Below, one piece after another: positions 16,904 through 47,662 of a stretch of 64,000 nt of DNA. The DNA comes from a virus (taxonomy: Duplodnaviria > Heunggongvirae > Uroviricota > Caudoviricetes). The stretch lies in IMG/VR virus record IMGVR_UViG_3300042870_001966; one strand, written 5' to 3'. The translations under genes and the position numbers were made by a program. The number at the start of each line of letters is the position of its first letter. Position 1 is the first letter of the stretch. A model generated the notes under the pieces. That model searched no databases. It was not told the DNA's origin and saw only the letters and a list, made by a program, of their open reading frames with translations.

Positions 16904-16991
16904 GGAGGATTGGCAGAGTGGTCGATCGCGGCAGTCTTGAAAACTGTTGTACCGCAAGGTACCGTAGGTTCGAATCCTACATCCTCCGCCA
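16904..16991 (+). tRNA. tRNA-Ser(TGA), type II, CCA encoded
   Basis: Manual fold: acceptor GGAGGAT/ATCCTCC, anticodon loop CTTGAAA, long variable arm, T-loop TTCGAAT. Confidence 0.75.
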
Positions 16992-17007
16992 AAAAAATCA
17001 ATAAACA

Positions 17008-17196
17008 ATGGGACTATTCGGAGCAATCGCTAATATAGCAAGCGCAACAGTAAAAACAGCATTGTCACCAATCGCAGTCGTAAAGGATGCAGTTGACGTG
17101 GCAACCGGTGGCGAAGCTACCGCAACAAAGGATTTAATAAACTCGGTCGGCGAAGACTTATCTGACGCAGTCGATGAGGTAGTTGATCCTTATTAA
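17008..17196 (+). CDS. small hypothetical protein
   Basis: ORF after tRNA-Ser. Confidence 0.3.
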   Translation: MGLFGAIANIASATVKTALSPIAVVKDAVDVATGGEATATKDLINSVGEDLSDAVDEVVDPY

Positions 17197-17210
17197 AAAA
17201 ATAACAGTAT

Positions 17211-17909
17211 ATGTTAATTAAAAATCAAACGCCATACCTTGGCAAAATTCAGTTGAAGTTCGAGAGATTTCCTCACTACACTGGCAAAACTAAATTAAAT
17301 AAGATCCACTTGGATCTGGGATTTACTAAGTTAGTAAGCCGAATCCGACCTGAAAGAGATTTGGAAGGTTGGGCTGTAAATCCTGAATGTATTAAACAAA
17401 TTGAAGCAACTACTGGGCTAAAGGTAGGAGTTCATAAGTTCGGACCAGACGATGAGTACTCATTACCCAATTCATGCATGAATCCAGACGGAGTTTACGT
17501 TGGATCAATTGAAGAAGGTTGGTGGTACTACAACAATGGCCTCAGAGCAACAAAGGGATCTCATCCTCATACTGCATGGAGTAAGAAGGCAAAGCAGTGG
17601 ATTGGTTATTCTCACCGTGCTTCTTGTGCATTCGGAAAAGGCGATAAACTATTTGATGCTAAATGGAAACCTGCTGAACAAGACCTTCCTCAATACGAAA
17701 AGTTCTACGGCAAGCACCTGGACTCGTATTATAAAGAGTGCGAAGAATGGGCAAAGAGTACCTCTGACCATAAAGCGTCAGAAGAAGAAATGACCCTTGC
17801 TGGTTGGGCAGTAGATCATATTCCTTTTAGACTACGTGGTGCTAAGACAATTCATTCGTATGAAGATGCTTACAAGGCAGCAGTTAACTTTGCAAAATAC
17901 GTATCGTAA
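17211..17909 (+). CDS. hypothetical protein
   Basis: ORF only. Confidence 0.5.
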   Translation: MLIKNQTPYLGKIQLKFERFPHYTGKTKLNKIHLDLGFTKLVSRIRPERDLEGWAVNPECIKQIEATTGLKVGVHKFGPDDEYSLPNSCMNPDGVYVGSIEEGWWYYNNGLRATKGSHPHTAWSKKAKQWIGYSHRASCAFGKGDKLFDAKWKPAEQDLPQYEKFYGKHLDSYYKECEEWAKSTSDHKASEEEMTLAGWAVDHIPFRLRGAKTIHSYEDAYKAAVNFAKYVS

Positions 17910-18166
17910 TGGCAAAAGGCTCTATATTAAATGCACTAAAGAACGAGGCGGACATGAAACGTCTCGTTCTTGAGTTTACTGAGAAATTAGAACATGACCC
18001 GTACCAACCGGGGCTAGTTCATCCGGAAGTCTATCCGGACGATGTTCAGGAAGTACTTGAAGATCTACTGTGGATTAGGGGATTCGATGAAGCGACTATC
18101 AGAGTTAGAAAGAATCCAGATGGAGTATCTGTATCAGTAGAAGTTTTGGGCAGAACTAAGGGATAA
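17909..18166 (+). CDS. hypothetical protein
   Basis: ORF only. Confidence 0.45.
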   Translation: MAKGSILNALKNEADMKRLVLEFTEKLEHDPYQPGLVHPEVYPDDVQEVLEDLLWIRGFDEATIRVRKNPDGVSVSVEVLGRTKG

Positions 18167-18187
18167 ATAATAAAAATAAGATCCCTA

Positions 18188-18739
18188 ATGAAACTTAAGA
18201 GATTTTCACAATTTGTAAAAGAGAGCTTGATAACAGAATCTTCGTCAGTTATTGAAGTTGAAGAAAATATATTCTTAATAGACGAAATAATCTACATAAT
18301 TTGGCTTGTTACACTAGACGTATCTTTCGATTATGAGCCTGACGATAGCAGTGTCGGATTCGTTGGCGGCTATTCAGTTGATGATGTTGACTTTGATGGA
18401 GTAGACGGAGTGTATAAAGTAACTGATCCTTCAGTAATTTCGCAGGTTAAAGCCATGCTAGATTCCCCTGAAGCTGAAGAGTTAAAAAGCATGGGATTTG
18501 AAGGAGCTGATGAATATGCAGCAATTGGCGATTTAATATACGATGCAGAGCAAGAAGAAATTACAGGAGAAGAGCTCAAGGACTTCATTAATAAATTCAA
18601 AGCTCTTTACGATTCAAATACTCTAGTCGATTTAACTGGTACTTTCAAAAAAAGAACTGACTCTGCTCTCGATAGAGCGGTTGAGGATTTTGAACCTGAT
18701 GAGCCTGACTACGATGATTACGACGATGATCGTTATTAA
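18188..18739 (+). CDS. acidic protein with CTS-like N-terminus (MKLKRFSQFVKE)
   Basis: Shares N-terminal motif with 18766, 40926, 43623 and 63082. ATAAATAA lies upstream. Confidence 0.55.
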   Translation: MKLKRFSQFVKESLITESSSVIEVEENIFLIDEIIYIIWLVTLDVSFDYEPDDSSVGFVGGYSVDDVDFDGVDGVYKVTDPSVISQVKAMLDSPEAEELKSMGFEGADEYAAIGDLIYDAEQEEITGEELKDFINKFKALYDSNTLVDLTGTFKKRTDSALDRAVEDFEPDEPDYDDYDDDRY

Positions 18740-18765
18740 TAAATAAACAAAAATTACTTTTTAAA

Positions 18766-19329
18766 ATGAAACTTAAAAGATTCACACAATTTGTTAACGA
18801 AGCAAAGATTAACGAAGCTCAAATCAAAGATAAAACTATCGTTGCTAAGCTTGATAGAATTCACGAAATCAAAACTCGATTAAAAGAATTGACAGCTGAA
18901 ACAAAAGCTATCAATACTGAGCTTGGTGCATTTGATGCAACAATGAAGCCGATCTTTGATGCAATGAAAGTCCTAAATGATAAGCTTGCAACAACTGAAA
19001 AATACGTTATCAAGATTTCAAGATACGGCGGATCTTCTGAAAACCCATCTTATGCTAAAGCTGTAGAGCAGGCACTAGGGTTAGTCGATGCTGCTGCTCA
19101 AGCAATTATCAACGAATGTGTTAGACAAAACACAGCAATATCAAACGTAAAACACTCATACGATATTGAAAAACTAGATGAATCTAAATTAACTGATAAA
19201 GCTAAAGCGATCGTTGCTAGGTTGTCTGGTAAAATCACAGCAATCGTTGCCAAGTTAAAGTCTTTCTTTGAGTCTAAATTCTCTAAGATCGATCAAGCAA
19301 ACGAAAAACTTGCAGCAATGATAAAGTAA
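18766..19329 (+). CDS. coiled-coil protein with CTS-like N-terminus (MKLKRFTQFVNE)
   Basis: Paralogous N-terminus. Confidence 0.55.
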   Translation: MKLKRFTQFVNEAKINEAQIKDKTIVAKLDRIHEIKTRLKELTAETKAINTELGAFDATMKPIFDAMKVLNDKLATTEKYVIKISRYGGSSENPSYAKAVEQALGLVDAAAQAIINECVRQNTAISNVKHSYDIEKLDESKLTDKAKAIVARLSGKITAIVAKLKSFFESKFSKIDQANEKLAAMIK

Positions 19330-19362
19330 TTTTTAGTAAAGGGAAACCTTTTTTAAAAAGTT

Positions 19363-19373
19363 GGTATAATAAC
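19363..19373 (+). promoter_or_regulatory. GGTATAATAAC motif upstream of leader and tRNA array
   Basis: Same motif. Confidence 0.45.
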
Positions 19374-19562
19374 TAGATAAATAACTAGACAAAAAAATTA
19401 AACTCGTGCAAATAACTACGAACATATCAAAAAATACTCAAAACTGGAATCAGTATCCGGCAGGCACAGTTAATGTGATTGCAATGGAGACGATTAAAGA
19501 TTTTGGGGTATTGCGAGGTTCTAGTGGTATAAGTTAAGAAATTACATAACTAACAACAACGA

Positions 19563-19597
19563 ACCTCGAACCTAAAAAATTCGAGGTTTTTTGTTTT
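19563..19597 (+). terminator. rho-independent terminator upstream of tRNA array
   Basis: CCTCGAAcct..TTCGAGG followed by TTTTTTG. Confidence 0.6.
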
Positions 19598-19602
19598 AGC
19601 AT

Positions 19603-19678
19603 GGTGAGGTAGCTCAGATGGTAGAGCACAGGACTGAAAATCCTGGTGTCGGCGGTTCGATCCCGCCCCTCACCACCA
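19603..19678 (+). tRNA. tRNA-Phe(GAA)
   Basis: Cloverleaf fold; anticodon loop CTGAAAA; CCA encoded. Confidence 0.8.
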
Positions 19679-19756
19679 ACAAAAAAATGAATAAGAATAT
19701 GAAACGTAAACGCTAAAGGCCCAGTGACTCCCAGAGTTACAGGTCTAAATACACAG

Positions 19757-19830
19757 GTCTTCGTAGCTCAGTTGGTTAGAGCACCTCACTTTTAATGAGG
19801 GAGTCACAGGTTCGAGTCCTGTCGGGGACA
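19757..19830 (+). tRNA. tRNA-Lys(TTT)
   Basis: Anticodon loop CTTTTAA. Confidence 0.75.
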
Positions 19831-19836
19831 CTAAAC

Positions 19837-19913
19837 TGGAATATAGCTCAATTGGTTAGAGCATTCGCCTGATACGCGAAAGGTTATAGGTTCGATTCCT
19901 ATTATTCCAACCA
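19837..19913 (+). tRNA. tRNA-Ile(GAT)
   Basis: Anticodon loop CTGATAC; CCA encoded. Confidence 0.75.
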
Positions 19914-19918
19914 AACAT

Positions 19919-19996
19919 TGCGGGATGCGTAGAAAGCGGTTATCTCGTCAGTCTCATAAGCTGAAGTTCCCGGTTCGAGTCCGGGTCCCGCAACCA
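19919..19996 (+). tRNA. tRNA-Met or Ile2 (CAT), atypical D-arm
   Basis: Perfect acceptor TGCGGGA/TCCCGCA; anticodon loop CTCATAA; CCA encoded. Confidence 0.6.
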
Positions 19997-20005
19997 AAAG
20001 AATAC

Positions 20006-20076
20006 ACGGATGTGGTGCAATGGTAGCATGCGGGTCTCCAAAACCCTAGATGGGAGTTCGAATCTCTCCGACCGTG
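20006..20076 (+). tRNA. tRNA-Trp(CCA)
   Basis: Anticodon loop CTCCAAA. One acceptor mismatch. Confidence 0.6.
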
Positions 20077-20173
20077 CAAATCTTTCGAAAGAAAGTGACT
20101 AAATTAAACCTAATGTGGTATAGTAATCATATAAGTTTAACAAGAGTTCTTTGACTTATTGGAGATTGAAAAT

Positions 20174-20244
20174 TGTCCTGTGGTGTAATGGCAGCACGTC
20201 TGGTTTTGGTCCAGAAGATCGAGGTTCGAATCCTTGCGGGACAA
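20174..20244 (+). tRNA. tRNA-Gln(TTG)
   Basis: Anticodon loop TTTTGGT. Confidence 0.7.
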
Positions 20245-20249
20245 CATAT

Positions 20250-20321
<72 letters not shown>

Positions 20322-20326
20322 CTAAT

Positions 20327-20432
20327 GATTAGATGGGCGTAATGCGGGATGGTACCCAAGTCCCGAACTCGAAAGAGGTAAGGTTGTCTACTCCGTCTTG
20401 CACGGTATCCGGTTCGAGTCCGGCTCTAATCA
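20327..20432 (+). tRNA. tRNA-like element, 106 nt, anticodon undetermined
   Basis: Perfect 7-bp acceptor GATTAGA/TCTAATC. Canonical T-arm TCCGG-TTCGAGT-CCGGC. The internal 72 nt do not fold as a standard D/anticodon arm. Confidence 0.4.
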
Positions 20433-20541
20433 CCCGGATCCATGCACGTCGAGCGCAAACCAATCGCTCTTCAGGTAGATTTGCATGGATAAACAACCCG
20501 TCACGGTATACCCACAGGGTAGGAGTGAACTGGAGAGAAAT

Positions 20542-20613
20542 GGTCCTGTAGTTAATCGGCTATAACGCCGCCCTGTCACGGCGGTATGCCGGGTTCGATT
20601 CCCGGTGGGACCG
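20542..20613 (+). tRNA. tRNA-Asp(GTC)
   Basis: Anticodon stem CCGCC/GGCGG, loop CTGTCAC. Confidence 0.8.
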
Positions 20614-20802
20614 CGAAAGTATATCAACAGAAGTCCGACTTGCACGGATGAAAGGAACCTTGGCTCCATGGGATTAGCTACCCAACCGGAGAGATATAAA
20701 TGACCCAAGGTACTCTGTTCAGGTCCCTGCTCTACTGTGCACAGTATCAGGTTATGGGGAACAAACCATAAGTAAAAACCGGAGCACGGTATACTTTTAT
20801 TT

Positions 20803-20874
20803 GGCCCGTTAGTCTATCGGTTAGGACACGCCCCTTTCACGGGTGAGAGACGAGTTCGATTCTCGTACGGGCTA
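20803..20874 (+). tRNA. tRNA-Glu(TTC)
   Basis: Loop CTTTCAC. Confidence 0.75.
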
Positions 20875-21020
20875 CTAAGAACAACGGTCTCTCCGGCCAA
20901 TGTGATGTCGACAATCACGGTCGGATCAAGAGTTCACCACCCTCAGCCTGGGCCCAGAGAAAACTCTGATGAAGCTGTTAAGATTGGAGCGAGACGGGTA
21001 CTCCAACGTTGTTCTTAAAT

Positions 21021-21097
21021 GGGCTGTTAGCTCAGTTGGCTAGAGCACCGCACTTGCACTGCGGGGGTCGAGAGTTCGAGTCTCTCACGGTCCACCA
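21021..21097 (+). tRNA. tRNA-Ala(TGC)
   Basis: Loop CTTGCAC; CCA encoded. Confidence 0.8.
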
Positions 21098-21102
21098 ACA
21101 TT

Positions 21103-21176
21103 GCCTCCTTAGCTCAGTTGGCCAGAGCGCCTCACTTGTAATGAGGATGTCGGCGGTTCGAATCCGTCAGGAGGCT
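21103..21176 (+). tRNA. tRNA-Thr(TGT)
   Basis: Perfect acceptor GCCTCCT/AGGAGGC; loop CTTGTAA. Confidence 0.8.
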
Positions 21177-21355
21177 CACATCGTATTAGGGTCGTGCCGC
21201 ATTTTGCCACGATACGAAATAGACTTGAGAGGATCAGAGGCGGCCGTGACTACCTCAAGTCGAAGTTAGATAGTGTCTCGGTACGCTCTGGTTAGTCGCA
21301 AGACTTTCTAACGACGAGGTCCCGGTGGGCAGAACGCGTCTGATCCCACCCACTT

Positions 21356-21431
21356 GCGGGAGTAGCTCAGTTGGTAGAGCGCAACCTTGCCAAGGTTGAG
21401 GTCGCCGGTTCGAACCCGGCCTCCCGCTCCA
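21356..21431 (+). tRNA. tRNA-Gly(GCC)
   Basis: Loop TTGCCAA; CCA encoded. Confidence 0.8.
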
Positions 21432-21434
21432 TAA

Positions 21435-21507
21435 GCGGATGTCGTATAATGGCTTATTACTCCAGCCTTCCAAGCTGGAGATGCGAGTTCGATTCTCGCC
21501 ATCCGCT
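21435..21507 (+). tRNA. tRNA-Gly(TCC)
   Basis: Loop CTTCCAA. Confidence 0.75.
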
Positions 21508-21588
21508 CGACCGGTGGCTCCCTTAATGGTTCGAGGCCGACCTCAAACATCGGTGATACGTCATACAGGGGGCGAAAGCGTATCAAAC

Positions 21589-21661
21589 AGTCCTTTAGCT
21601 CAGTTGGTAGAGCATCTGTTTTACATGCAGAGGGTCGTAGGTTCGAATCCTACAGGGACTA
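21589..21661 (+). tRNA. tRNA-Val(TAC)
   Basis: Loop TTTACAT. Confidence 0.75.
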
Positions 21662-21950
21662 CTATGAGCAAGAGATACTCAGTAAGATTGGTCGCATTCT
21701 TTAAAAAAGCGATGGTAGTGAAAAAGTCCTCGACCTTAATGGGGGATCGATTCGGGTAAACGTGAGCAAGACTCTGCCGCGCCGACGTAGAGAGTTGACA
21801 GGTTTTTATGTGGTAAGACACTAATGAAAAAGACTTATTGGGGGAGGACCGTATAGTCTAAGACGTCAATAAGGGATATGGTTCTCGAAACAGTCAGAGA
21901 AACCCGTTAAAATCCAGTCTTCGTACAAGTCTCAGTATGGAGCAAATTAT

Positions 21951-22027
21951 CGAGATGTTGGGGAGTCCGGTTACCCCGCCTGCTTTGGGAGCAGGAGAAC
22001 TCGCAGGTTCGAATCCTGCCATCTCGA
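21951..22027 (+). tRNA. tRNA-Pro(TGG)
   Basis: Loop TTTGGGA; 7-nt variable region. Confidence 0.65.
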
Positions 22028-22135
22028 CAAAAGAACCTTAGTAGAGGCTGACTCCACCAGCTAGGACGTAACGTTCAAGCCTAGCTGAAAGCACGCGCTT
22101 GCGCTGAAATGGTGGTCGAGGTTCTTTTATTTTAT

Positions 22136-22210
22136 TGGGTGTTAGCTCAGCGGTAGAGCTCTCGACTGTTAATCGAGTGGTCCCAGGTTCGAATCCTGGA
22201 CACCCAGCCA
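22136..22210 (+). tRNA. tRNA-Asn(GTT)
   Basis: Loop CTGTTAA; CCA encoded. Confidence 0.8.
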
Positions 22211-22348
22211 AGGTTGATTAGGGAATGATTGTGTCAATAGTTCGAGAGTGAATGCTGACTGACATAATCGGAGTTTGCAGGCATTCACCAGAGTAATGCT
22301 AATCGTAAAATGAGATGTCCACTGAACCATCTTCTCATTTCCTTACCT

Positions 22349-22435
22349 GCCGTAGCGCTGAAGTTGGAGAGTCAGGACAGACTGTAAATCTGTTGTCGTA
22401 AGGCTGAGTAGGTTCGAATCCTACCTGCGGCACCA
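22349..22435 (+). tRNA. tRNA-Tyr(GTA), type II
   Basis: AGACTGTAAATCTG anticodon arm identical to E. coli Tyr; CCA encoded. Confidence 0.75.
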
Positions 22436-22486
22436 AGTAGTTTTGAGGTGGGCGAATTCTACTCTAAAAAAATAATCCCTCCACCA

Positions 22487-22560
22487 GGACCTTTAGCTCA
22501 GTTGGTTAGAGCAGCGCACTCATAATGCGAAGGTCTCAGGTTCGAGCCCTGAATGGTCCA
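22487..22560 (+). tRNA. tRNA-Met or Ile2 (CAT)
   Basis: Loop CTCATAA; one acceptor mismatch. Confidence 0.65.
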
Positions 22561-22644
22561 CAAATTTTTTAGATTTTTTATCATCCGATTAAACCTAAAT
22601 CGATTTTTAATAGTATAGTAATAGTGTATCTTAATTTAAAACAA

Positions 22645-27900: not shown

Positions 27901-28449
27901 ATGACAACTGTAGATAAAATTAAGAGCCTAATTTCAGCAATTTCAAAAAGAGGAATTGGCCATACTGAGCTAATGAGGCAAGGAACTAATCACTACGATC
28001 GACCCTTTGCTATTGTTGCAAATACAATGGACTCCGCAAAGCGATTGGCCGGCGAGTCTGACCTCGCTACACCAGTTACGATAAGTAATATTGATCACTT
28101 AATAGGATCAGATTTGCCAGTTGCAATAGATCATTACCAAGTTCAGCAATTACTACAGTCAGCTCTAATTGAGATTTCCGATAGAGATTTTAAATTACAG
28201 AGAGCAATGACCATCCAGGAAAAGATGATGACACTTGTTGAATTGTATCAGAAGAGAGCTCATGAAATTGAGTCAATTAGTTCAGATCTATTGGCATGTA
28301 ATTGGTGGGACGTTAAGAAGATTATCTCTACTGAACGTAAGCTTCATAAAGCAATCTTAAAATACAATACTGAATACGATGGTATTGCCCAAACGTTTGA
28401 CACCTTAACTAAAATAGCAAAACATACACATGAGACTACTAACTCTTAA
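27901..28449 (+). CDS. hypothetical protein
   Basis: ORF only. Confidence 0.45.
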   Translation: MTTVDKIKSLISAISKRGIGHTELMRQGTNHYDRPFAIVANTMDSAKRLAGESDLATPVTISNIDHLIGSDLPVAIDHYQVQQLLQSALIEISDRDFKLQRAMTIQEKMMTLVELYQKRAHEIESISSDLLACNWWDVKKIISTERKLHKAILKYNTEYDGIAQTFDTLTKIAKHTHETTNS

Positions 28450-29359
28450 TCTAGCAAATCCGGAAAACGAAGGACGAGACCACTTTGAAAGAAGTGCATT
28501 CGTTGATTTCAAAGTTTCAAAGTTTGCTGACGGTCAACAGTCATTAACTCTAACTGGCGATATGCGTGGAAACTTAAGTTACCTACACGAAGCTGATGTC
28601 GTAATAAAATCTAGACTAAATAACTTCAAGGATCTTGAGTTAATTATCTGTGCAAATCAGGCTCTTCGCGAATGTGGAGTCGCGACAGTTTCCCTGTATG
28701 TTCCCTATTTCTTGGGAGCACGTAGTGACCGTAAATTCTCAGAAGGTTCTTCAAATTACCTAAAGACCGTTATTTGCCCAATCATTAATTCTCAGAAATT
28801 TGAATCTGTGCAGGTTCTGGATCCTCACTCTGATGTATTGGAAGCCTGTCTCAATAATTTCCAAAAAGTATCTAATTACTTACTCGTTAAGTACGCGCTT
28901 ACTGATATTGATAACACGAATCAGGCAAGAGAGAATATTGTTCTTGTTTCTCCAGACGCAGGTGCTCTAAGGAAAATTTACAAAGTCGCTGACTGGTTTG
29001 ACTTAAATGAGGTGGTGACTGCGGTAAAGCACAGAGATCCAAAAACCAGTAAAATCACTCACACCGATATTTCCTTAAAACCATTAGTGCATGAGTACGG
29101 CAAGAAATTCGTTATCGTGGACGATATTTGCGATAGTGCTGGAACTTCAATTGAATTAGCAAAAGCAATCAAGGAGAGAACTCAAGATTCGAAAATATAC
29201 TTGATAGCGACCCATGGAATTTTCAGTTCAGGATTATTTGATCTTTCTGCATACTTCGAAAAAGTTTACTGTACAAATTCAGTACAGGATATTAAAGCTG
29301 ACGAGTACTCTGACTACACAGTTAGCGCAGATTTCGTAAAACAATTTAACTTATTTTAG
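28430..29359 (+). CDS. prs: ribose-phosphate pyrophosphokinase (PRPP synthetase)-like
   Basis: VPYFLGARSDRK resembles PYfgYaRQDRK. DDICDSAGT PRPP-binding loop. Confidence 0.6.
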   Translation: MRLLTLNLANPENEGRDHFERSAFVDFKVSKFADGQQSLTLTGDMRGNLSYLHEADVVIKSRLNNFKDLELIICANQALRECGVATVSLYVPYFLGARSDRKFSEGSSNYLKTVICPIINSQKFESVQVLDPHSDVLEACLNNFQKVSNYLLVKYALTDIDNTNQARENIVLVSPDAGALRKIYKVADWFDLNEVVTAVKHRDPKTSKITHTDISLKPLVHEYGKKFVIVDDICDSAGTSIELAKAIKERTQDSKIYLIATHGIFSSGLFDLSAYFEKVYCTNSVQDIKADEYSDYTVSADFVKQFNLF

Positions 29360-29381: not shown

Positions 29382-29648
29382 ATGATAGGTATAACTACCC
29401 TCCTTATTACAACAGTGGCAGCCTTTGTTCTATTTGTTGTGCTAGGCTTGGCACTAGGCAACAGACGCGATAGAATTGCAGCAGAGCACTATATGAAATC
29501 GCTTGACGAATTTAAAAGAGCAAACAAAGAGGCGGAAGCCAACGGCGAACCTCTATTTTGTGAGTCTACTAAAAAGCCAAGCGAGAATCTTTATCGCGAA
29601 GTACTAACTACGACTCAGTCCCCATCGAGCACAGATGACAACGATTAG
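29382..29648 (+). CDS. membrane protein
   Basis: N-terminal TM helix. Confidence 0.4.
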   Translation: MIGITTLLITTVAAFVLFVVLGLALGNRRDRIAAEHYMKSLDEFKRANKEAEANGEPLFCESTKKPSENLYREVLTTTQSPSSTDDND

Positions 29649-29688
29649 TACGGTGCCCAGTTTAAAACTAGTCAACTATTAAAAATAA

Positions 29689-29716
29689 AAAGGAACCGAC
29701 TAGGTTCCTTTTTTGG
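29689..29716 (+). terminator. rho-independent terminator
   Basis: GGAACCgactaGGTTCC followed by TTTTTT. Confidence 0.65.
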
Positions 29717-29728
29717 TAAATTAGATTT

Positions 29729-30397
29729 ATGAAAATTACATTACAGCCTCATCAGCGAATATGGTTCACGTCAGATACTCACTACAAACACTCAAATATT
29801 TGTAGAGGAACGTCTAATTGGCCGGCCGAGAGTAAGACCAGAGATTTCGATACCCTGGATAAAATGAATGATACGATTGTTAACAATATCAATCACCTAG
29901 TCAGCGAAGACGATATTCTTTTCCACTTAGGAGACTGGTCGTTCGGAGGATTTGATAACATCCAGGAGTTCAGAGACAGGTTGCTCTGTAAGAACATTCA
30001 TTTGGTTCTAGGTAATCACGACCAGCACATCGAGAATGACAAGGGAGGAGTCAAGGCTCTATTTGCATCAGTGAATCATTACGTTAGACTGGAACTTACT
30101 GTTCCAAACGTGCCGAACGAAATAAATCCAGCGAAGACTATTAAGAAAACGTTTGTGCTATGTCATTACCCAATCGCAAGTTGGCACGATATGAACCGTG
30201 GAGTAATTCAATTACATGGTCACGTTCACTTAGGCCCACACAATAAATTACATGCAGGTAAAGCAATGGACGTTGGCATGGACGGCAACTTCATGGACCC
30301 ATATTCTCTTCAAGAAATCGCAAAGATTATGAGAGACCGTCCAGTTAAGTGTTTGGTTTTACCGAACGATCACCATGAAACAAACGAAGGAAGATGA
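29729..30397 (+). CDS. calcineurin-like metallophosphoesterase
   Basis: SDTHY...GDW...GNHD...HGHVH motifs. Confidence 0.7.
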   Translation: MKITLQPHQRIWFTSDTHYKHSNICRGTSNWPAESKTRDFDTLDKMNDTIVNNINHLVSEDDILFHLGDWSFGGFDNIQEFRDRLLCKNIHLVLGNHDQHIENDKGGVKALFASVNHYVRLELTVPNVPNEINPAKTIKKTFVLCHYPIASWHDMNRGVIQLHGHVHLGPHNKLHAGKAMDVGMDGNFMDPYSLQEIAKIMRDRPVKCLVLPNDHHETNEGR

Positions 30398-30831
30398 TAC
30401 AGAATACACACAATAAAATCGGCGAGGGTAATCGACTCCTTGCGCAATTCATGGGAGGCACAATTGTCTCTAGTGAAACCTACGAAATGCCACACGGCTC
30501 AAACGGCAAAGGCGTCTTTGAAAAATGGGGTGGACTCTCTGGAATTCCCAGTCACGATCAGGAATTGGCTGCACTTGGAATATTTAGATATGAAACCTCA
30601 TGGAGCTGGATTTTTCCAGTAATCGAAAAGATCGAGAGTCTTGGTTTCTGCGTCAGCATTCACCGTAGAGGAATTCAAATTATTAAGTACGACAAGGATC
30701 GAAGATTTGAAGCGACTGACCTAATTATCGATGAAGACTTCTTAGATGATTATTCTGGAGATGTTAAGCGAATTGCTGCATGGGACTGTTGCGTTTCTTT
30801 TGTTGACTGGTACACAAAGAGGAGCCAATAA
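30394..30831 (+). CDS. hypothetical protein
   Basis: ORF only. Confidence 0.45.
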   Translation: MIQNTHNKIGEGNRLLAQFMGGTIVSSETYEMPHGSNGKGVFEKWGGLSGIPSHDQELAALGIFRYETSWSWIFPVIEKIESLGFCVSIHRRGIQIIKYDKDRRFEATDLIIDEDFLDDYSGDVKRIAAWDCCVSFVDWYTKRSQ

Positions 30832-31217
30832 TGGAATTAACGGGACCCTCTAAACTAGTAGTCGCATCCAGTCCAATACACGGACTTGGAGTATTCGCAA
30901 CGCAATCTATTAGCCCAGGCGAGATTATTGAAGAATGTCATTTCATAACATTCGATGCGACATCAGATGATCCTATTTTTAATGATTATCGATTCATAGT
31001 CGGCCGTTCTGAGAAATTAGGCTGCGTAGAGTATGGCGTTCTTCTTGGATTCGGAGGAATCTACAATCACAGTGAAACTCCAAATATAAATTGGAGACAT
31101 GATACTGAAAAGAATTGTTTTACGTTCTTTGCACTAGTCGATATTAATCCAGGAGACGAATTGTGCTCGTATTACGGAGGGCCTGAATATTGGAAATCAA
31201 TTGGTATGGAAATTTAG
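30831..31217 (+). CDS. SET-domain protein (putative lysine methyltransferase)
   Basis: GLGVFA..GE.I, NHSETPN, GDELCSYYG SET motifs. Confidence 0.6.
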   Translation: MELTGPSKLVVASSPIHGLGVFATQSISPGEIIEECHFITFDATSDDPIFNDYRFIVGRSEKLGCVEYGVLLGFGGIYNHSETPNINWRHDTEKNCFTFFALVDINPGDELCSYYGGPEYWKSIGMEI

Positions 31218-31291: not shown

Positions 31292-32725
31292 ATGACAGAA
31301 ATCATCACATCATCACTTATGTACGGACTACCGGCCTTAATAGGGGTAATCGTATTTTTTTATGCACTATCTCTACGTCGAATCGTGCCAACTAACGTAG
31401 TCCACATCGTTCAACGAGGAGACAAAACTGTTTCCTATGGCGTAGGTAAAGGCTCTAACGTTTATTATGAGTGGCCGAAGTGGTTACCTAAAATCGGAGT
31501 TATGGTCAGATCATTGCCAGTATCTAACTTTGATATTGACTTAGCTAAATATTCAGCGTATGATAAGGACCGTGTCCCTTTCGTAGTTGACGTTAAGGCA
31601 TTCTTCCACATTGCTGATACAAATAAAGCTGCCGAGAAAGTAGAATCATTTGACGAGTTGAAAAAGCAGCTGGAAAATGTAGTTCAAGGAGCAGTTCGTT
31701 CTATTTTAGCAAAGTCTAAATTGGAGGAAATTATGGAAGAACGATCTATCTTTGGCGAAAAATTTACTGAAAGTGTTAAAGTTGATTTATCTAATTGGGG
31801 AGTTGAGCCTATTAAAAATATCGAGTTAATGGATGTTAGAGATACTGACGGTTCGAGCGTTATTCACCAGATTATGGCTAAGCGAATGTCTGCGATTGAT
31901 ATGGAATCCAGAACTGAAGTTGCTAAAAACACTAAATTGGCAGAGCAGGCGGAACTAACTGCTCAACAAGAAATTGATGTAACTAAAGCAGAAACTCAGA
32001 AAATTGCAGGAGAGGCGCAAGCTCAATCAATACAGGCAATCGGTATTGCCAAAGCAGAGGCTACAAAAAAGGCAGGTATTGCAGAACAAGAGTCAATATC
32101 AGATATCGCTCAAGCTGAACGAGCTACTGCTGAACAGCAAATGGAGGTCGTTAAAGTTAATGAGATTAAGCAGGCTGAAATTGATAAGGAAAAGGCAATT
32201 ATTGCAGCTGAGCAACAAAAACGCAAAACTGAAATTGACGCAGAGGCTAATAAATTTAGAATTGAGACTGAGGCTTCTGCTACACTTGAAGCACAGATCA
32301 AAAATGCAGAAGGTGTTAAAACTCTGGGCCAAGCAGAAGCAGATATTATTAAAGCAAAGGGTATATCGCAGGCTGAATCCAAGAAAGCAATGGAGCTTGC
32401 TGGAGTAACTGCCCAAACAACCCTAGCAAAAGAGATTGGCGAAAACAAATCTTACCAAGAATACTTGATCAAAATTAGAGAAGTTGAAGTAACTCAAGTA
32501 GTCGGAGTTGCACAATACGAATCGATGGCAAAAGCAATGGCTGGAGCTGACTTGAAACTATTGGTAAATAGTGGAGACGTACACTCAGGAATTGGCAAGT
32601 TAAGCGACCTATTCACAGCTAAAGGAGGTTCACAGATTAACGGGCTTCTTGAATCATTGAAACAGACACCTGAAGGTAAAGGCTTACTGGCTATGCTTAA
32701 CAAGCTTACACCAGGCGCAGAATAA
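31292..32725 (+). CDS. SPFH/band-7 (flotillin-like) membrane protein with long coiled coil
   Basis: N-terminal TM helix, SPFH core, QAE/KAE-rich heptads. Confidence 0.65.
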   Translation: MTEIITSSLMYGLPALIGVIVFFYALSLRRIVPTNVVHIVQRGDKTVSYGVGKGSNVYYEWPKWLPKIGVMVRSLPVSNFDIDLAKYSAYDKDRVPFVVDVKAFFHIADTNKAAEKVESFDELKKQLENVVQGAVRSILAKSKLEEIMEERSIFGEKFTESVKVDLSNWGVEPIKNIELMDVRDTDGSSVIHQIMAKRMSAIDMESRTEVAKNTKLAEQAELTAQQEIDVTKAETQKIAGEAQAQSIQAIGIAKAEATKKAGIAEQESISDIAQAERATAEQQMEVVKVNEIKQAEIDKEKAIIAAEQQKRKTEIDAEANKFRIETEASATLEAQIKNAEGVKTLGQAEADIIKAKGISQAESKKAMELAGVTAQTTLAKEIGENKSYQEYLIKIREVEVTQVVGVAQYESMAKAMAGADLKLLVNSGDVHSGIGKLSDLFTAKGGSQINGLLESLKQTPEGKGLLAMLNKLTPGAE

Positions 32726-32741
32726 TTTTTAATAAATTTAA

Positions 32742-32778
32742 GACAAAAAGTCTCTAGATTTGTCTAGAGACTTTTTTA
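32742..32778 (+). terminator. rho-independent terminator
   Basis: GTCTCTAGAtttgTCTAGAGAC followed by TTTTTT. Confidence 0.65.
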
Positions 32779-32806: not shown

Positions 32807-33544
32807 ATGACAGCACCATTTGAATTTTACGAAGTAGGCGGAAAGGTAAGAGACGAGATCTTGGGACTTCAGTCCAAAGACGTTGATTACGTAGCCGTGC
32901 CGAAAGCAACTCTGCTTGAGGAATTTCCTGAGGCGGCTGATATGTTTGACTTGCTAGTTGACTACTTAACTCGTGAAAAATTCCAGATATTCCTGATCAC
33001 CAAAGAATGTTACACAATCAGAGCAAAATTTCCAGACGGACATAAGTACCAAGGAGTTGCTGATTTTGTAATGTCTAGAAAAGAGACTGGATACGTGCCG
33101 TTTACCAGAACTCCGATCATTAAGCCTGGAACCCTATTCGACGATTTACAGAGAAGAGACTTTACTCTTAATGCCCTGGCAAGAGAAGCGGACGGCTCGA
33201 TCATTGACTACTTTGATGGGCTGACTCACTTGAAGCTTGGGCTATTAGTAACGCCATTACCTTGCGAGGAAACGTTTCACGATGATCCTTTGAGAATCTT
33301 GAGAGCTATTAGATTTTCAATCACTAAAGGATTTACTATCCCTGAGGAAATGTCTCAAGTAATAAAGCACTACGATTACGAAGTTAAGATGTGTGTAGTA
33401 TCAGCTGAGAGAATCAGGGAAGAGCTCTTTAAGTGTTTCAAACATGACACTCATGCAACGATACTTAAGTTATCAGAGTACCCTTTCCTTATGGAATACA
33501 TTTTTAGAACACAAATCTGGTTAAAACCAACAATGGAAGAATAA
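32807..33544 (+). CDS. cca: CCA-adding tRNA nucleotidyltransferase (head/neck domains)
   Basis: GGKVRDEILG, DVDY, RRDFTLNA motifs. Confidence 0.75.
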   Translation: MTAPFEFYEVGGKVRDEILGLQSKDVDYVAVPKATLLEEFPEAADMFDLLVDYLTREKFQIFLITKECYTIRAKFPDGHKYQGVADFVMSRKETGYVPFTRTPIIKPGTLFDDLQRRDFTLNALAREADGSIIDYFDGLTHLKLGLLVTPLPCEETFHDDPLRILRAIRFSITKGFTIPEEMSQVIKHYDYEVKMCVVSAERIREELFKCFKHDTHATILKLSEYPFLMEYIFRTQIWLKPTMEE

Positions 33545-34098
33545 TGGAAGCAACAATAAATGGAAGAATAATGGAAGCAAAAATAAACTGGGTTCTAGAC
33601 CAACATAGAGACACGAATCACATGTACGATAAGTACTTGCCTTATGAATTTCATTTACGTATGGTCGTTGAAGTTGCAAAGAAATTTCAATCTTTAATTA
33701 CGTATGAGAAAGATTTTGAGCATGTACTACTTGGAGCATGGGGCCATGATCTTATTGAAGACACCAGAGTTTCATACAATGATGTTAAGCAGGCGCTTGG
33801 AGAAATGGCAGCAGATATTGTCTATGCGTGCTCAAACGAGAAAGGCAAGAGTCGTAATGATCGGGCTAACTACCGATACTACGATGGAATCAGAACAACG
33901 CCGTATGCGATATTCGTTAAGTTATGCGACCGAATTGCAAACGTGCAGTACTCAAAAATGTCTGGCAGCAGAATGTTCGAGATGTACAGAAAAGAAAATC
34001 CCGAATTCATGCAGCAATTAGGCTGGACGGCTGAAGAAAAATATCTTCATGAGTATGCCAATATGTTTGTATACTTAAGTAAATTATTCGAAGACTGA
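33544..34098 (+). CDS. HD-domain phosphohydrolase (stand-alone)
   Basis: H..GHDLIEDT...D motifs. Adjacent to the CCA enzyme, as in bacterial fused CCA enzymes. Confidence 0.65.
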   Translation: MEATINGRIMEAKINWVLDQHRDTNHMYDKYLPYEFHLRMVVEVAKKFQSLITYEKDFEHVLLGAWGHDLIEDTRVSYNDVKQALGEMAADIVYACSNEKGKSRNDRANYRYYDGIRTTPYAIFVKLCDRIANVQYSKMSGSRMFEMYRKENPEFMQQLGWTAEEKYLHEYANMFVYLSKLFED

Positions 34099-34117
34099 AA
34101 ATAAAAAAATTAATATA

Positions 34118-35320
34118 ATGGAAAATCAAAACAGCGTATGTTACATTGGAAAAGTAACAGAAATCAAGGCAATCGAAGGAGCTGACAATATTGAGTTAGC
34201 GATCATCGGTGGATGGAATTGTATTACTAAAAAAGGACTACACAAGGCGGACGAATTTGTTATCATTGCAACAACTGATGCAGTTATTCCGGAAGAGTTA
34301 TCCGAAAAATTGGGAGTAACCGGTTACCTGCGTAAGGGCAATCGAGTTAGAACAGTTAAGTTGAGAGGAGTTTACAGTGAGTGTCTAATCATTCCGCTTA
34401 ATGTGCTTGAAGGTTCAGAAGAAATGAAGATCGGAGTTAGTAAACAGCCTTGGGGCGATCAATTACAGTTGGGCCCTTATGACGATGCACTCGTTATTGA
34501 AGAAGGAGTTGACGTTAGTGAGATGCTTGGAATTTTCAAGTACGAACCGCCAGTTAGACAGGTCCAACTTGCTTCAGGTAAAAAGGTTCGTTATCAAGAC
34601 AATCCAAACTTTCATGTCTACTACAAGTTTCCTAACTTGAAAAATGTTAGTGGAATGTTTACTGAAGAGGATATTGTGCAAATCACGCGTAAGATCCACG
34701 GTACGAATGCACGATACGGTATAGTTAAGAAGAATCGCTTGTCCTTCATGGATAGGATTAAAAAATTCTTTGGATTCGCCGGAGAGCTCTTTGAGTACGA
34801 GTACGTTTATGGATCTCATAATGTCGAGAAGGGTTCTGATTCTCAAGGGTTCTATTCAACTGATGTCTGGAGAACAATTGCCGAGAAGTACGATATCAAG
34901 AACAGGTTGCTTACCTTAGCAAAAACTAAAAATAGGATTGGTGAACTTGGAGCTGGTATTGTAATTTACGGAGAAATTTACGGTGCAGGTATTCAAAAGA
35001 ATTACGAGTACGGTCTGACTGATATTGAATTCGTTGGATTCGATGCCACAGTAAACGGCAAATACGAGTCCACTATTTACACTGAATTCCTTTTCAAAGA
35101 AGCGCTAGAGTTACCTCACGTTGGAGTCCTATACACAGGACCGTGGTCACAAGAGACACAAGACCAGTTCGTCTTTGGTAATATGATCAAAGGAACTAAG
35201 GTGCCGCATGAAGGCATTGTTATTAAGCACATAAGCGGTGAGCGTAATCGAGTAGCAAAGGTAATTAATCCAGACTATTTGATTTACGGAGAAAAGCACG
35301 ATATTGGAGACTCACATTAA
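34118..35320 (+). CDS. ATP-dependent RNA ligase (Rnl2-like motifs) fused to N-terminal tRNA-binding OB (Myf/Trbp111-like) domain
   Basis: N-terminal GKV.EI..IEGADNIELA..GG tRNA_bind pattern. Ligase motifs KIHGTN (I), EGIVIK (IV), AKVIN (V). Confidence 0.65.
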   Translation: MENQNSVCYIGKVTEIKAIEGADNIELAIIGGWNCITKKGLHKADEFVIIATTDAVIPEELSEKLGVTGYLRKGNRVRTVKLRGVYSECLIIPLNVLEGSEEMKIGVSKQPWGDQLQLGPYDDALVIEEGVDVSEMLGIFKYEPPVRQVQLASGKKVRYQDNPNFHVYYKFPNLKNVSGMFTEEDIVQITRKIHGTNARYGIVKKNRLSFMDRIKKFFGFAGELFEYEYVYGSHNVEKGSDSQGFYSTDVWRTIAEKYDIKNRLLTLAKTKNRIGELGAGIVIYGEIYGAGIQKNYEYGLTDIEFVGFDATVNGKYESTIYTEFLFKEALELPHVGVLYTGPWSQETQDQFVFGNMIKGTKVPHEGIVIKHISGERNRVAKVINPDYLIYGEKHDIGDSH

Positions 35321-36464: not shown

Positions 36465-36545
36465 GCCCTCTTGGCGGAATTGGTAGACGCGCTAGACTTA
36501 GGATCTAGTCTTAGGGTGAGAGTTCGAGTCTCTCAGAGGGTACCA
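36465..36545 (+). tRNA. tRNA-Leu(TAG)
   Basis: Class-II D-arm TGGCGGAATTGGTAGACGC. Loop CTTAGGA. Short (9 nt) variable region. CCA encoded. Confidence 0.6.
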
Positions 36546-42428: not shown

Positions 42429-42498
42429 GGTCAGTTTGGTCGTGGAGGCCGTCAGGTCTGCAAAATCTGAGGAGTTGGTTCGATTCCAACATTGACCT
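42429..42498 (+). tRNA. tRNA-Cys(GCA)
   Basis: Loop CTGCAAA. Confidence 0.65.
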
Positions 42499-42506
42499 CA
42501 AAAACT

Positions 42507-42590
42507 GGAAGAGTAATTCAGCTGGCGCTGGACCTAGTCTTGAAAACTAGTGGTACCTTCGGGTATGGGGATCGATACCTCACTCTTCCG
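42507..42590 (+). tRNA. tRNA-Ser(TGA)-like, type II, non-canonical T-loop ATCGATA
   Basis: 8-bp acceptor. Anticodon arm CTAGT-CTTGAAA-ACTAG. Variable-arm hairpin with TTCG loop. Confidence 0.5.
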
Positions 42591-42605
42591 CTCGTTCTTT
42601 TACAT

Positions 42606-42683
42606 GGTAGACGTAGCTCAGTTGGTTAGAGCGCCTGATTGTGGTTCAGGAGGTCGTCGGTTCGATCCCGATCGTTTACCCCA
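42606..42683 (+). tRNA. tRNA-His(GTG) with encoded G-1
   Basis: Loop TTGTGGT. G-1 pairs with C73. CCA encoded. Confidence 0.75.
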
Positions 42684-42686
42684 ACT

Positions 42687-42762
42687 GCCTCTGTGGGTAA
42701 ACTGGTAAAGCCGCTTGACTTAGGATCAAGAGATTTTGTGGGTTCGAATCCCACCAGAGGTA
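42687..42762 (+). tRNA. tRNA-Leu(TAG)-like, type-I length (7-nt variable region)
   Basis: Anticodon arm CTTGA-CTTAGGA-TCAAG; T-arm GTGGG-TTCGAAT-CCCAC. Confidence 0.55.
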
Positions 42763-42769
42763 CAAAAAT

Positions 42770-42850
42770 GCTCCCGTGGTGAAACTGGTAAACACGCTCG
42801 GCTTAAGATCGAGTGCGCAATGCTTGTGGGTTCGAGTCCCACCGGGAGTA
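42770..42850 (+). tRNA. tRNA-Leu(TAA), type II
   Basis: Loop CTTAAGA; 12-nt variable region. Confidence 0.7.
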
Positions 42851-42855
42851 CTAAT

Positions 42856-42943
42856 GGAGAGTGAAGCAACAAGGTGTTGTCGCCGCCTGCTAAGCGAGCG
42901 GTTCCCGAAAGGGAATGGGGATCGAGACCTCCACTCTCCGCCA
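42856..42943 (+). tRNA. tRNA-Ser(GCT)-like, type II, non-canonical T-loop ATCGAGA
   Basis: Acceptor GGAGAGT/ACTCTCC plus CCA. Bulged anticodon stem, loop CTGCTAA. Variable-arm hairpin TTCCC-GAAA-GGGAA. Confidence 0.5.
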
Positions 42944-42944
42944 T

Positions 42945-43018
42945 AGTCCAGTAGCTCAGTGGAATAGAGCAACCGCCTTCTAAGCGGTAGGTCGCAGGTT
43001 CGAGTCCTGCCTGGATTA
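42945..43018 (+). tRNA. tRNA-Arg(TCT)
   Basis: Loop CTTCTAA. Confidence 0.75.
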
Positions 43019-43042
43019 CAAATTATTTAGTACAATATAGCT

Positions 43043-43273
43043 ATGGAAGAAATAACAAACGCAGAAAGAGAATTCATGTTCTATAAGATTGGAACAGCTG
43101 GATCGTTTCACACAGCCTTGATTCAGACAATTATGAAGGCTGATATTCGTAATCAGGCTAAGCTTGCACTAGGTTTTCCCGAAGATGTTCAAGTGGTTCA
43201 ACGTTTTCAAAACGAAAGTGGCTACTGGGAAGGTCTGCAAGAGCGCTGGAAAGCTGCACATAACCGAAACTAA
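43043..43273 (+). CDS. hypothetical protein
   Basis: ORF between tRNAs. Confidence 0.4.
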   Translation: MEEITNAEREFMFYKIGTAGSFHTALIQTIMKADIRNQAKLALGFPEDVQVVQRFQNESGYWEGLQERWKAAHNRN

Positions 43274-43282
43274 TTAGTACCT

Positions 43283-43355
43283 GCCCCGGTAGTTCAATGG
43301 ATCAGAACACACGGCTACGGACCGTGAGATGGGGGTTCGAATCCCTCCTGGGGTA
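43283..43355 (+). tRNA. tRNA-Arg(ACG)
   Basis: Loop CTACGGA. Confidence 0.7.
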
Positions 43356-43370
43356 CTTAACTTAATCAAC

Positions 43371-45851: not shown

Positions 45852-46244
45852 ATGAGCGGTAGAACTAGAAATAACCAAGATGTCGATACTATGATGAACG
45901 ACATACTTGATGCGCTCGACGTAATCAAGGCCAAATTGCCAAATGGCGAACTTAAGATAATTCAAGAGAGAATGGAAGGTTTAGAATCTTCCCAAGAGGA
46001 CATGCACGAAGATCTGAGACAGATCAAAAAGCAGCTGCTTGATCCTGAAGACGGTATTGTCGTTAGAGTAAATAAGAACACTGAATTTCGTAAAAGGAAG
46101 GAAGAGGAGGCTAGAATTTATCAAGTAATATTGGATGAACATAAGGAGCTTATGTCATGGAAATCTACTGTAACTAAAATACTATGGATTATAGTAACGG
46201 CAGTTGTCGGAATTGCAGTGGGTATGATTTTTAAGTCAAATTAA
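45852..46244 (+). CDS. coiled-coil protein with C-terminal TM helix
   Basis: Terminator follows. Confidence 0.45.
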   Translation: MSGRTRNNQDVDTMMNDILDALDVIKAKLPNGELKIIQERMEGLESSQEDMHEDLRQIKKQLLDPEDGIVVRVNKNTEFRKRKEEEARIYQVILDEHKELMSWKSTVTKILWIIVTAVVGIAVGMIFKSN

Positions 46245-47413: not shown

Positions 47414-47662
47414 ATGGCCGCAAGAAGTAACCAACCTGGGGATATTATTGTCTGGATAGAAAATATTATTGCATCATGCACGCATCCCATGCAGGAAAGT
47501 GTTGCTAGAAAGTTAATTGATCTATTTGACAAAAAGCTCGAAAGAACAAAGTATCCAACCAGTTTAAGAATACTTATTTACCGTAACCTTAGAGATAAGA
47601 TTGACGATAAAATGTACGACCGAATACAAAAAAATCTAGAAAACAATGCCGACTTTAATTAA
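47414..47662 (+). CDS. hypothetical protein
   Basis: ORF only. Confidence 0.35.
   Translation: MAARSNQPGDIIVWIENIIASCTHPMQESVARKLIDLFDKKLERTKYPTSLRILIYRNLRDKIDDKMYDRIQKNLENNADFN

Follow-up and report, generated by a model that had tools for sequence, protein, structure and literature searches.

A 64,000-nucleotide stretch of tailed-phage DNA (IMG/VR record IMGVR_UViG_3300042870_001966, Caudoviricetes; hereafter the window) contains a complete gene for a stand-alone SET-domain protein of 128 amino acids (aa), located at 30831..31217 on the + strand, with an ATG start and the stop codon included. The protein is probably a catalytically competent lysine N-methyltransferase resembling vSET, and it is carried as an accessory function by a huge tailed phage. 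Its automatic annotation is correct, and was known already, as both JGI and NCBI name this exact protein “SET domain-containing protein”. The minimal SET proteins to which it is related form a large and uncharacterised family borne by uncultured phages.

Domain identity, active-site residues and fold

An initial annotation of the window had proposed a SET-domain protein in a phage on the basis of four short motifs, GLGVFA (residues 18-23), GEII (30-33), NHSETPN (79-85) and GDELCSYYG (108-116). The listed translation of the open reading frame (ORF) at 30831-31217 (+) reads exactly as described, all four motifs are in place, and as a set they far exceed what is expected by chance. The profile search that the annotation had named as the way to overturn its proposal gave a clear match: Pfam SET (PF00856) was found with E = 1.2e-12 and 48.6 bits, for a gathering score of 22.4, and the alignment is complete, profile positions 1-105 of 105 being covered by query residues 18-116. 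When PDB sequences were searched with phmmer, vSET came first (1n3j, E = 5.1e-12), followed by Schizosaccharomyces pombe Set7 (5h6z, 7.5e-10) and, at lower ranks, by Plasmodium falciparum PFL0690c, then MLL1 and KMT5B. In PHROGs, the protein matched only weakly to one unnamed family (phrog_28741, E = 6e-5). No match was obtained in NCBIfam, nor with the PADLOC defence models at E <= 0.01, for which the neighbouring genes gave sub-threshold matches only. The four cysteines of the protein (C36, C65, C96 and C112) are scattered, and since they form no cluster, pre-SET and post-SET zinc modules are lacking. We assign the protein to the SET superfamily and, within it, to the minimal stand-alone subtype, but not to the H3K27 enzymes.

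Conservation was then scored on an alignment of 229 stand-alone homologues (105-175 aa) plus vSET. All aligned positions involved in S-adenosylmethionine (SAM) binding and catalysis are present in the query, and each of them is 73-100% conserved. The N-terminal GxG motif, which binds SAM in SET domains, corresponds to G18-L-G20-V-F-A23 (codons 30882..30899, +) and is aligned with G15, G17 and F19 of vSET (conservation of G18 98%, G20 99%, F22 97%). Residues Y53-R-F55 (30987..30995, +; Y53 97%, F55 94%) are aligned with Y50 and F52 in the 'DYLF' segment of vSET, and we take Y53 and F55 to be part of the lysine-channel wall, a role carried over from vSET and other SET structures. G73 faces vSET G63. 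The NHSxxPN signature, which contributes to SAM binding and forms one strand of the SET pseudoknot, is found as Y78-N79-H80-S81-E-T-P-N85 (31062..31085, +), aligned with FNHSKDPN of vSET (Y78 97%, N79 100%, H80 97%, S81 92%, N85 94%). The ELxxxY signature, G108-D-E110-L-C-S-Y-Y115-G116 (31152..31178, +), holds the catalytic tyrosine, and E110 and Y115, each 99% conserved, are aligned with E100 and Y105 of vSET. Finally, the C-terminal aromatic pair Y120-W121 (31188..31193, +; Y 81%, W 73%) is equivalent to Y109-W110 ('DYW') of vSET. In the predicted structure described below, this pair is carried by a helix spanning residues 118-123, which presumably takes the place of a post-SET domain, as in vSET, and closes the lysine channel. 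Comparison with the 90% identical copy of a close relative (L001) gave a ratio of non-synonymous to synonymous substitutions (dN/dS) of 0.107, with dS = 0.48, so that the SET gene is under purifying selection.

A first AlphaFold model of the protein, built from 9 sequences (pLDDT 73), already matched SET structures only. It was superseded by an AF2 model built from 121 homologues, with a pLDDT of 86.6 and a pTM of 0.79. The best Foldseek match of this second model is vSET (3kma; rmsd 2.8 Å, 30% identity), with a TM-score of 0.72 when normalised to the query and 0.86 when normalised to vSET. The fold of the model therefore matches vSET, the structure to which the initial annotation had suggested comparing it. 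Set7 and then PFL0690c are the next-best matches. In line with the all-beta SET fold, a total of 356 PDB matches were obtained at E <= 0.001, and the best 50 listed are all SET or PR domains with a probability of 1.00.

The intact active site bears directly on the possibility that the fold is no longer an enzyme, and serves instead as a SAM-binding sink or as a lysine-peptide binder blocking a host protein. PR/SET-like pseudoenzymes do exist, PRDM PR domains are among the fold matches, and relatives of the protein in Menderavirus phages have lost the NHS motif (replaced by NSS), the tyrosine of DYxF and the C-terminal YW. However, catalytic and SAM-binding residues, including N79, H80 and Y115, are kept at 92-100% in the protein and its clade, which is unexpected in the absence of catalysis, and we consider a non-catalytic role very improbable.

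vSET (A612L of Paramecium bursaria chlorella virus 1; 1n3j, 3kma) is thus the best PDB match of the phage protein for both sequence and fold. The two proteins are of similar size (119 aa for vSET, 128 aa for the phage SET), both are virus-encoded, stand-alone and devoid of pre-SET and post-SET zinc domains, and both possess the GxG, NHSxxPN, ExxxxY and C-terminal D/E-Y-W motifs. They differ in several places: the phage protein is longer at residues 40-47, between the second and third beta elements, where the vSET segment is shorter and unaligned; it has an insertion at residues 58-64; and residue 88, two positions past the PN motif, is a tryptophan in 85% of the family and a histidine in vSET. 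The most marked difference concerns the biological setting, as vSET is encoded by a giant virus infecting a eukaryotic alga and acts on histone H3 in nucleosomes (H3K27), whereas the phage SET is encoded by a tailed phage. A eukaryotic virus host and methylation of H3 Lys27, both typical of vSET, are therefore not found for the phage protein, and its substrate must differ from that of vSET because its bacterial host has no H3. Set7 (an H3K37 methyltransferase, 5h6z) and PFL0690c (4rz0), second and third for both sequence and fold, are also compact SET cores without flanking zinc modules. In contrast to the phage SET, they are eukaryotic nuclear proteins (26-28% identity) acting on histone substrates which are absent from a bacterial host.

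By homology, the phage enzyme would bind SAM via its GxG and NHS motifs and, in the course of infection, would methylate one or a few lysines of a target protein at their epsilon-amino group. It would probably do so as a dimer, like vSET, which works as a homodimer. Tandem SET genes are found at phage loci L011-L013 and L060, as well as at bacterial loci L097, L102, L103 and L105 (Chitinophagaceae and other Bacteroidota metagenome-assembled genomes, MAGs), and 23 of the 150 nearest cluster representatives contain two to four near-full SET domains in a single chain. By analogy with vSET, these tandem genes and multi-SET fusions suggest that the functional unit is dimeric. The stop and start codons of tandem SET genes often overlap.

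Occurrence in phages and cells, and the carrier phage

The initial annotation had described SET proteins as rare in phages, which holds for cultured and GenBank phages (10 of 50,697 records) but not for uncultured ones (at least 130 IMG/VR contigs). With the window protein as query, tblastn against the 50,697 GenBank phage records found 2 of them, namely both copies of the 735-kb Mahaphage record, at 42% identity. With a more consensus-like family member, P0008, 10 records were found, 8 of which are Stenotrophomonas Menderavirus (phages Moby, Mendera, Marzo, Yut2 and Ps15 carry the SET relative, at 36-38% identity to P0008). The Menderavirus proteins (Moby CPT_Moby_259 and Ps15 ORF62), annotated “SET domain-containing protein”, are the sole relatives in cultured phages. 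They differ from the window protein in having 103 aa, NSS in place of NHS, DHLF in place of DYxF, and no C-terminal YW. Judging from these residues they are probably catalytically impaired, and hence a poor proxy for the phage clade. The Moby gene (L163:4010-4321, MN095772.1 138185-138496) lies in a long series of small hypothetical genes, more than 25 in number, and the function of Ps15 ORF62 is given as unknown (PMC9025141). A large survey of jumbo phages (PMC7824862) makes no mention of the SET domain.

Metagenomic sequences gave a very different picture. With a word-index search at E <= 1e-5, 2,275 clusters were recovered. Of these, the top 120 all have 121-140 aa and 37-49% identity to the query, four close relatives excepted. 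An exhaustive profile search at E <= 1e-3 yielded 7,137 cluster representatives, most of them stand-alone proteins of 115-165 aa; 2,735 were obtained at 1e-10. Just two narrow peptide patterns were enough to recover the at least 130 confirmed IMG/VR contigs mentioned above. BFVD and UniProt also contain entries named 'SET domain containing protein [uncultured Caudovirales phage]', the best of which has 128 aa and 40% identity. A clade of SET proteins of ~130 aa therefore circulates among several unrelated lineages of uncultured phages.

The view that SET methyltransferases are mainly eukaryotic, also put forward in the initial annotation, is outdated for this minimal subfamily, given the 7,137 representatives of the profile search and the chromosomal homologues present in Alphaproteobacteria and Chitinophagaceae. 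The best GTDB matches are alphaproteobacterial MAGs (Puniceispirillaceae and Rhodobiaceae, 38-41% identity), where the SET gene has a conserved chromosomal setting with genes for an ABC peptide transporter, dimethylsulfoniopropionate (DMSP) lyase, EamA and pyruvate kinase. In Ferruginibacter and Chitinophaga, tandem SET pairs lie beside an M48 peptidase gene, and a homologue with 33% identity was found in Methanosarcinales (L099). We considered whether the alphaproteobacterial homologues were mis-binned phage DNA, and rejected this on account of their chromosomal neighbours and of the absence of any gene in common with the viral loci. In a neighbour-joining tree, all phage copies group in a single clade whose sister group is the alphaproteobacterial one, with the copies of Chitinophagaceae and Patescibacteria outside.

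The converse error, a cellular SET gene mis-assembled or mis-binned into a viral record, could be suspected from these same chromosomal homologues. Yet the gene is coupled by overlap to phage neighbours of the same strand, and this arrangement is repeated on independent contigs from several samples. Moreover, the identical protein is found on contigs of up to 271 kb, GC content is uniform, and cellular copies have no neighbours in common with viral ones. The chance that the gene is not viral is negligible.

The identical SET protein is present on 46 contigs, the longest of 271,408 bp, and occurs in 97 index blocks, including 18 with contigs of 0.2-1 Mb. The carrier is thus a recurrent huge tailed phage, with a size of at least 271 kb. 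The window encodes a T4-type portal protein (56525-58207, -; phrog_213), whose closest homologues belong to uncultured huge phages: first LR756500 (462 kb, 42% identity), next LR756504 (636 kb), LR756502 (642 kb) and the Mahaphage LR756501 (735 kb), and then Prevotella Lak phages. A nucleotide search with the 28-34 kb region against GenBank phages gave no match, so that no annotated close relative exists there. As for the host, GGAG or GAGG was found within 20 nt upstream of only 2 of 90 genes (>= 80 aa), compared to 6% at random positions, and gene leaders are A-rich across the window. Such a scarcity of Shine-Dalgarno motifs combined with A-rich leaders fits a Bacteroidota-like host, and the phage probably infects such a bacterium.

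The SET gene of the window is therefore not a one-off, but one member of a conserved clade under selection, with an intact catalytic site and spread over several phage lineages. This clade offers a small, easily expressed enzyme family with which to ask whether bacterial viruses turn protein methylation on their hosts. It also bears on the origin of the minimal SET proteins of giant viruses, since no sequences closer to vSET than these phage proteins were found in the analysis. Should the substrate be mundane or the enzyme redundant, what remains would be an ordinary accessory gene that had been correctly annotated by automatic means.

Genomic contexts and candidate substrates

To survey contexts, neighbours of the loci retrieved from IMG/VR were clustered, and two further family members (L160 and L161) were looked up. 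Phage SET genes occur in at least six contexts, that of the window included. In the window, the SET gene follows a gene for a calcineurin-like phosphoesterase (Metallophos; 29729-30397, +; Pfam Metallophos E = 1.2e-8, phrog_547 E = 1.4e-42) and a 145-aa ORF of unassigned function (30394-30831, +), and this triad is repeated in four close relatives (L001-L004), with a SET protein 90% identical. At loci L153-L159, homologues of the 145-aa ORF (54-81% identity) are still paired with the phosphoesterase, other genes follow, and no SET was found in six frames within ~6 kb of the 145-aa gene. A second set of contigs, group B (L005-L007, L037 and L039; up to 214 kb), is syntenic with the window genes at 44.6-52.7 kb, but has its SET gene at a site different from that of the window, between homologues of window ORFs 45852-46244 and 47414-47662. 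From the loci lacking SET and the shifted site of group B, we conclude that the SET gene is accessory, and has been gained, lost and moved within the phage lineage.

The remaining contexts are unrelated to these. In group A (61 loci), genes for a tail sheath protein (1,070 aa), a 346-aa and a 171-aa protein lie on the - strand, opposite a divergent unit headed by SET (L009, L012, L053 and others). In this unit, the SET gene is directly followed by that of an SNF2-family helicase, then by that of a superoxide-dismutase fusion, which has 512 aa and contains Fe/Mn superoxide dismutase domains, and by further genes. In group C (contigs up to 223 kb), the order is 1,569 aa, 298 aa, SET, sulfotransferase. 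On one 103-kb contig (L161), SET is found between a sugar epimerase gene and the genes for a T4-type neck protein and terminase. Lastly, on one 50-kb phage-like contig (L160; 7528-8396, +), SET lies directly 3' of a GreA/GreB-like gene, and RecA, DNA ligase and PhoH are encoded on the same contig. A 56-aa ORF located 7 kb upstream (L160:910-1080, -) has a weak Pfam match to Hc1, the chlamydial histone-like protein; no counterpart of it was found in the other loci or in the window.

Of the targets put forward in the initial annotation (a host ribosomal, nucleoid or defence protein), none is singled out by the data themselves. Our tentative guess, based on analogy with known enzymes, is that the substrate would be a lysine-rich host protein, abundant and able to bind nucleic acids, from the nucleoid or the transcription machinery. 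We rank such a substrate first because vSET acts on H3K27, Set7 on H3K37, Go1-SET on MC1-alpha and cpnSET on Hc1. Go1-SET of Methanosarcina mazei methylates MC1-alpha, and cpnSET of Chlamydia pneumoniae methylates Hc1/Hc2 (PMC3980110). Although they are cellular genes and not viral ones, Go1-SET and cpnSET are small SET enzymes acting on abundant basic DNA-binding proteins in cells without nucleosomal H3, and they provide, as far as analogy goes, the best functional model for a phage enzyme inside a bacterium. The SNF2 and GreA-like neighbours described above lend weak support to a nucleoid or transcription substrate. After it we rank the translation apparatus, then the phage's own proteins, and then the non-catalytic role considered earlier.

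Another point of comparison is given by the secreted SET effectors or 'nucleomodulins', such as Chlamydia NUE, Legionella RomA/LegAS4, Bacillus anthracis BaSET and Burkholderia BtSET (PMC3980110). With them the phage protein shares the SET catalytic core and, possibly, the role of a parasite tool for modifying host proteins. Nucleomodulins are larger proteins that target eukaryotic histones and are equipped with secretion signals or additional domains. The phage SET, in contrast, consists of the 128-aa domain alone and is synthesised within the bacterial cell that the phage infects.

Several modifications of host proteins, namely ADP-ribosylation, phosphorylation and acetylation, are known means by which phages reprogram the cells they infect. 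One may imagine that the SET clade is a host-takeover tool, lysine methylation of bacterial nucleoid or transcription proteins serving to silence or remodel the host chromosome. We regard this more specific proposal as rather unlikely. If true, it would constitute a bacterial counterpart of the silencing of algal chromatin by vSET through H3K27, and phages would for the first time be seen to use protein-lysine methylation as a weapon. The association of SET with an SNF2-type ATPase gene in the largest group, and that with a GreA-like gene in another, would then be meaningful.

The same active enzyme could instead be directed at the translation apparatus, methylating ribosomal proteins or elongation factors and thereby tuning host ribosomes for phage mRNAs. 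The SET gene of the window is indeed located amid 26 tRNA genes and genes for a CCA-adding enzyme, an HD protein and an RNA ligase, and the yeast SET enzymes Rkm1-4 methylate ribosomal proteins. This neighbourhood is however not kept, since close relatives have other genes downstream and other lineages have unrelated contexts, and the nearest characterised relatives by sequence and by fold are histone or chromatin enzymes. A translation substrate thus appears unlikely.

Methylation of phage proteins (virion, replication or DNA-binding proteins) was also considered; it might, for instance, shield lysines against host proteases and defences of the conjugation type, or control assembly. In favour of such substrates, SET genes are found beside structural genes, the tail sheath gene in group A and the T4-type neck protein and terminase genes in L161, and the weak Hc1-like ORF lies 7 kb away in L160. 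No phage protein family, however, co-occurs with SET across contexts, the Hc1-like ORF is confined to the L160 locus, and SET is dispensable in close relatives having the same core genes. We hold phage proteins for quite unlikely targets.

Several points weigh against our preferred reading of an active methyltransferase, perhaps directed at a host nucleoid or transcription protein. Catalysis in the phage clade is a prediction from sequence and fold, and no functional study of a phage SET protein was found in the literature searched. A gene neighbour conserved across phage SET loci was sought and none was found, contexts being lineage-specific, so that genomic context provides no clue to the substrate. 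The adjacency of SET and SNF2 is limited to one phage lineage, where it may reflect simple inheritance. No homologue of HU, TF1, H-NS, MC1 or L11 was detected by phmmer in the 64-kb window. In addition, the neighbour-joining tree uniting the phage copies has no bootstrap values and relies on a sampling biased by the retrieval peptide patterns, and the call of a Bacteroidota-like host draws only on the scarcity of Shine-Dalgarno motifs and on portal kinship.

Gene organisation around the SET gene in the window

All genes between 27.5 and 36.4 kb are on the + strand. Upstream of the phosphoesterase gene, a PRPP synthetase (28430-29359, +; assigned from Pfam and PHROG matches) and an 88-aa ORF (29382-29648, +; from the ORF list) are encoded. 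The 145-aa ORF that follows the phosphoesterase gene, also from the ORF list, has no match in Pfam, PHROG, NCBIfam or PADLOC. It was examined as a possible partner or substrate of the SET protein and rejected, as it persists together with Metallophos in the SET-less loci L153-L159. The start codon of the SET gene overlaps the stop codon of the 145-aa ORF by 1 nt (TAATG, 30829-30833). An AGGAG is found 6 nt before the SET start, but as gene leaders in the window lack Shine-Dalgarno motifs, it is probably mere coding sequence of the upstream gene.

Downstream of SET, a 477-aa flotillin-like protein of the SPFH/Band 7 family is encoded (31292-32725, +; Pfam E = 5e-18, with a weak match to NCBIfam FloT). 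In relatives, the SPFH gene is found elsewhere, where it adjoins the gene for NAPRTase. Two strong A5-stem-T5 hairpins, at 29687-29713 and 32745-32776, flank the block formed by the phosphoesterase, 145-aa, SET and SPFH genes, and could act as bidirectional terminators. It is therefore likely, or at least possible, that this block is one transcription unit, with the phosphoesterase gene first, in which case SET would be expressed with non-structural genes. A scan for sigma-70 promoters gave 19 candidates, which is not above expectation (14.8 +/- 4.2 in shuffled sequences). The sigma-70 consensus probably does not apply to this phage, because its leaders are A-rich and lack Shine-Dalgarno motifs.

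Beyond the second hairpin and 3' of the SET and SPFH genes, a tRNA/RNA repair block extends from 32807 to 35320. Its components, assigned from Pfam and PHROG matches, are a CCA-adding tRNA nucleotidyltransferase (32807-33544, +), an HD phosphohydrolase (33544-34098, +) and an RNA ligase with an OB-fold domain (34118-35320, +). In the close relative L001 there are, in addition, genes for Thg1, NAPRTase, NADAR and YqeY-like proteins. The 26 tRNA genes of the window, all on the + strand, span 16904-22561, 36465-36545 and 42429-43356, with 19 of them located within 19.6-22.6 kb. The packing of these 19 genes accounts for a local GC spike of 0.506; elsewhere in the window, GC is 35-41%.

Other products encoded in the window include a topoisomerase II, a helicase, a Lon-like protease and a DNA polymerase. 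For the latter, in the region 59406-62145 (-), the match of a 541-aa ORF to DNA polymerase profiles is confined to their C-terminal half (phrog_262 positions 500-838). A 374-aa ORF lies next to it, and the polymerase gene may be split or bear an insertion.

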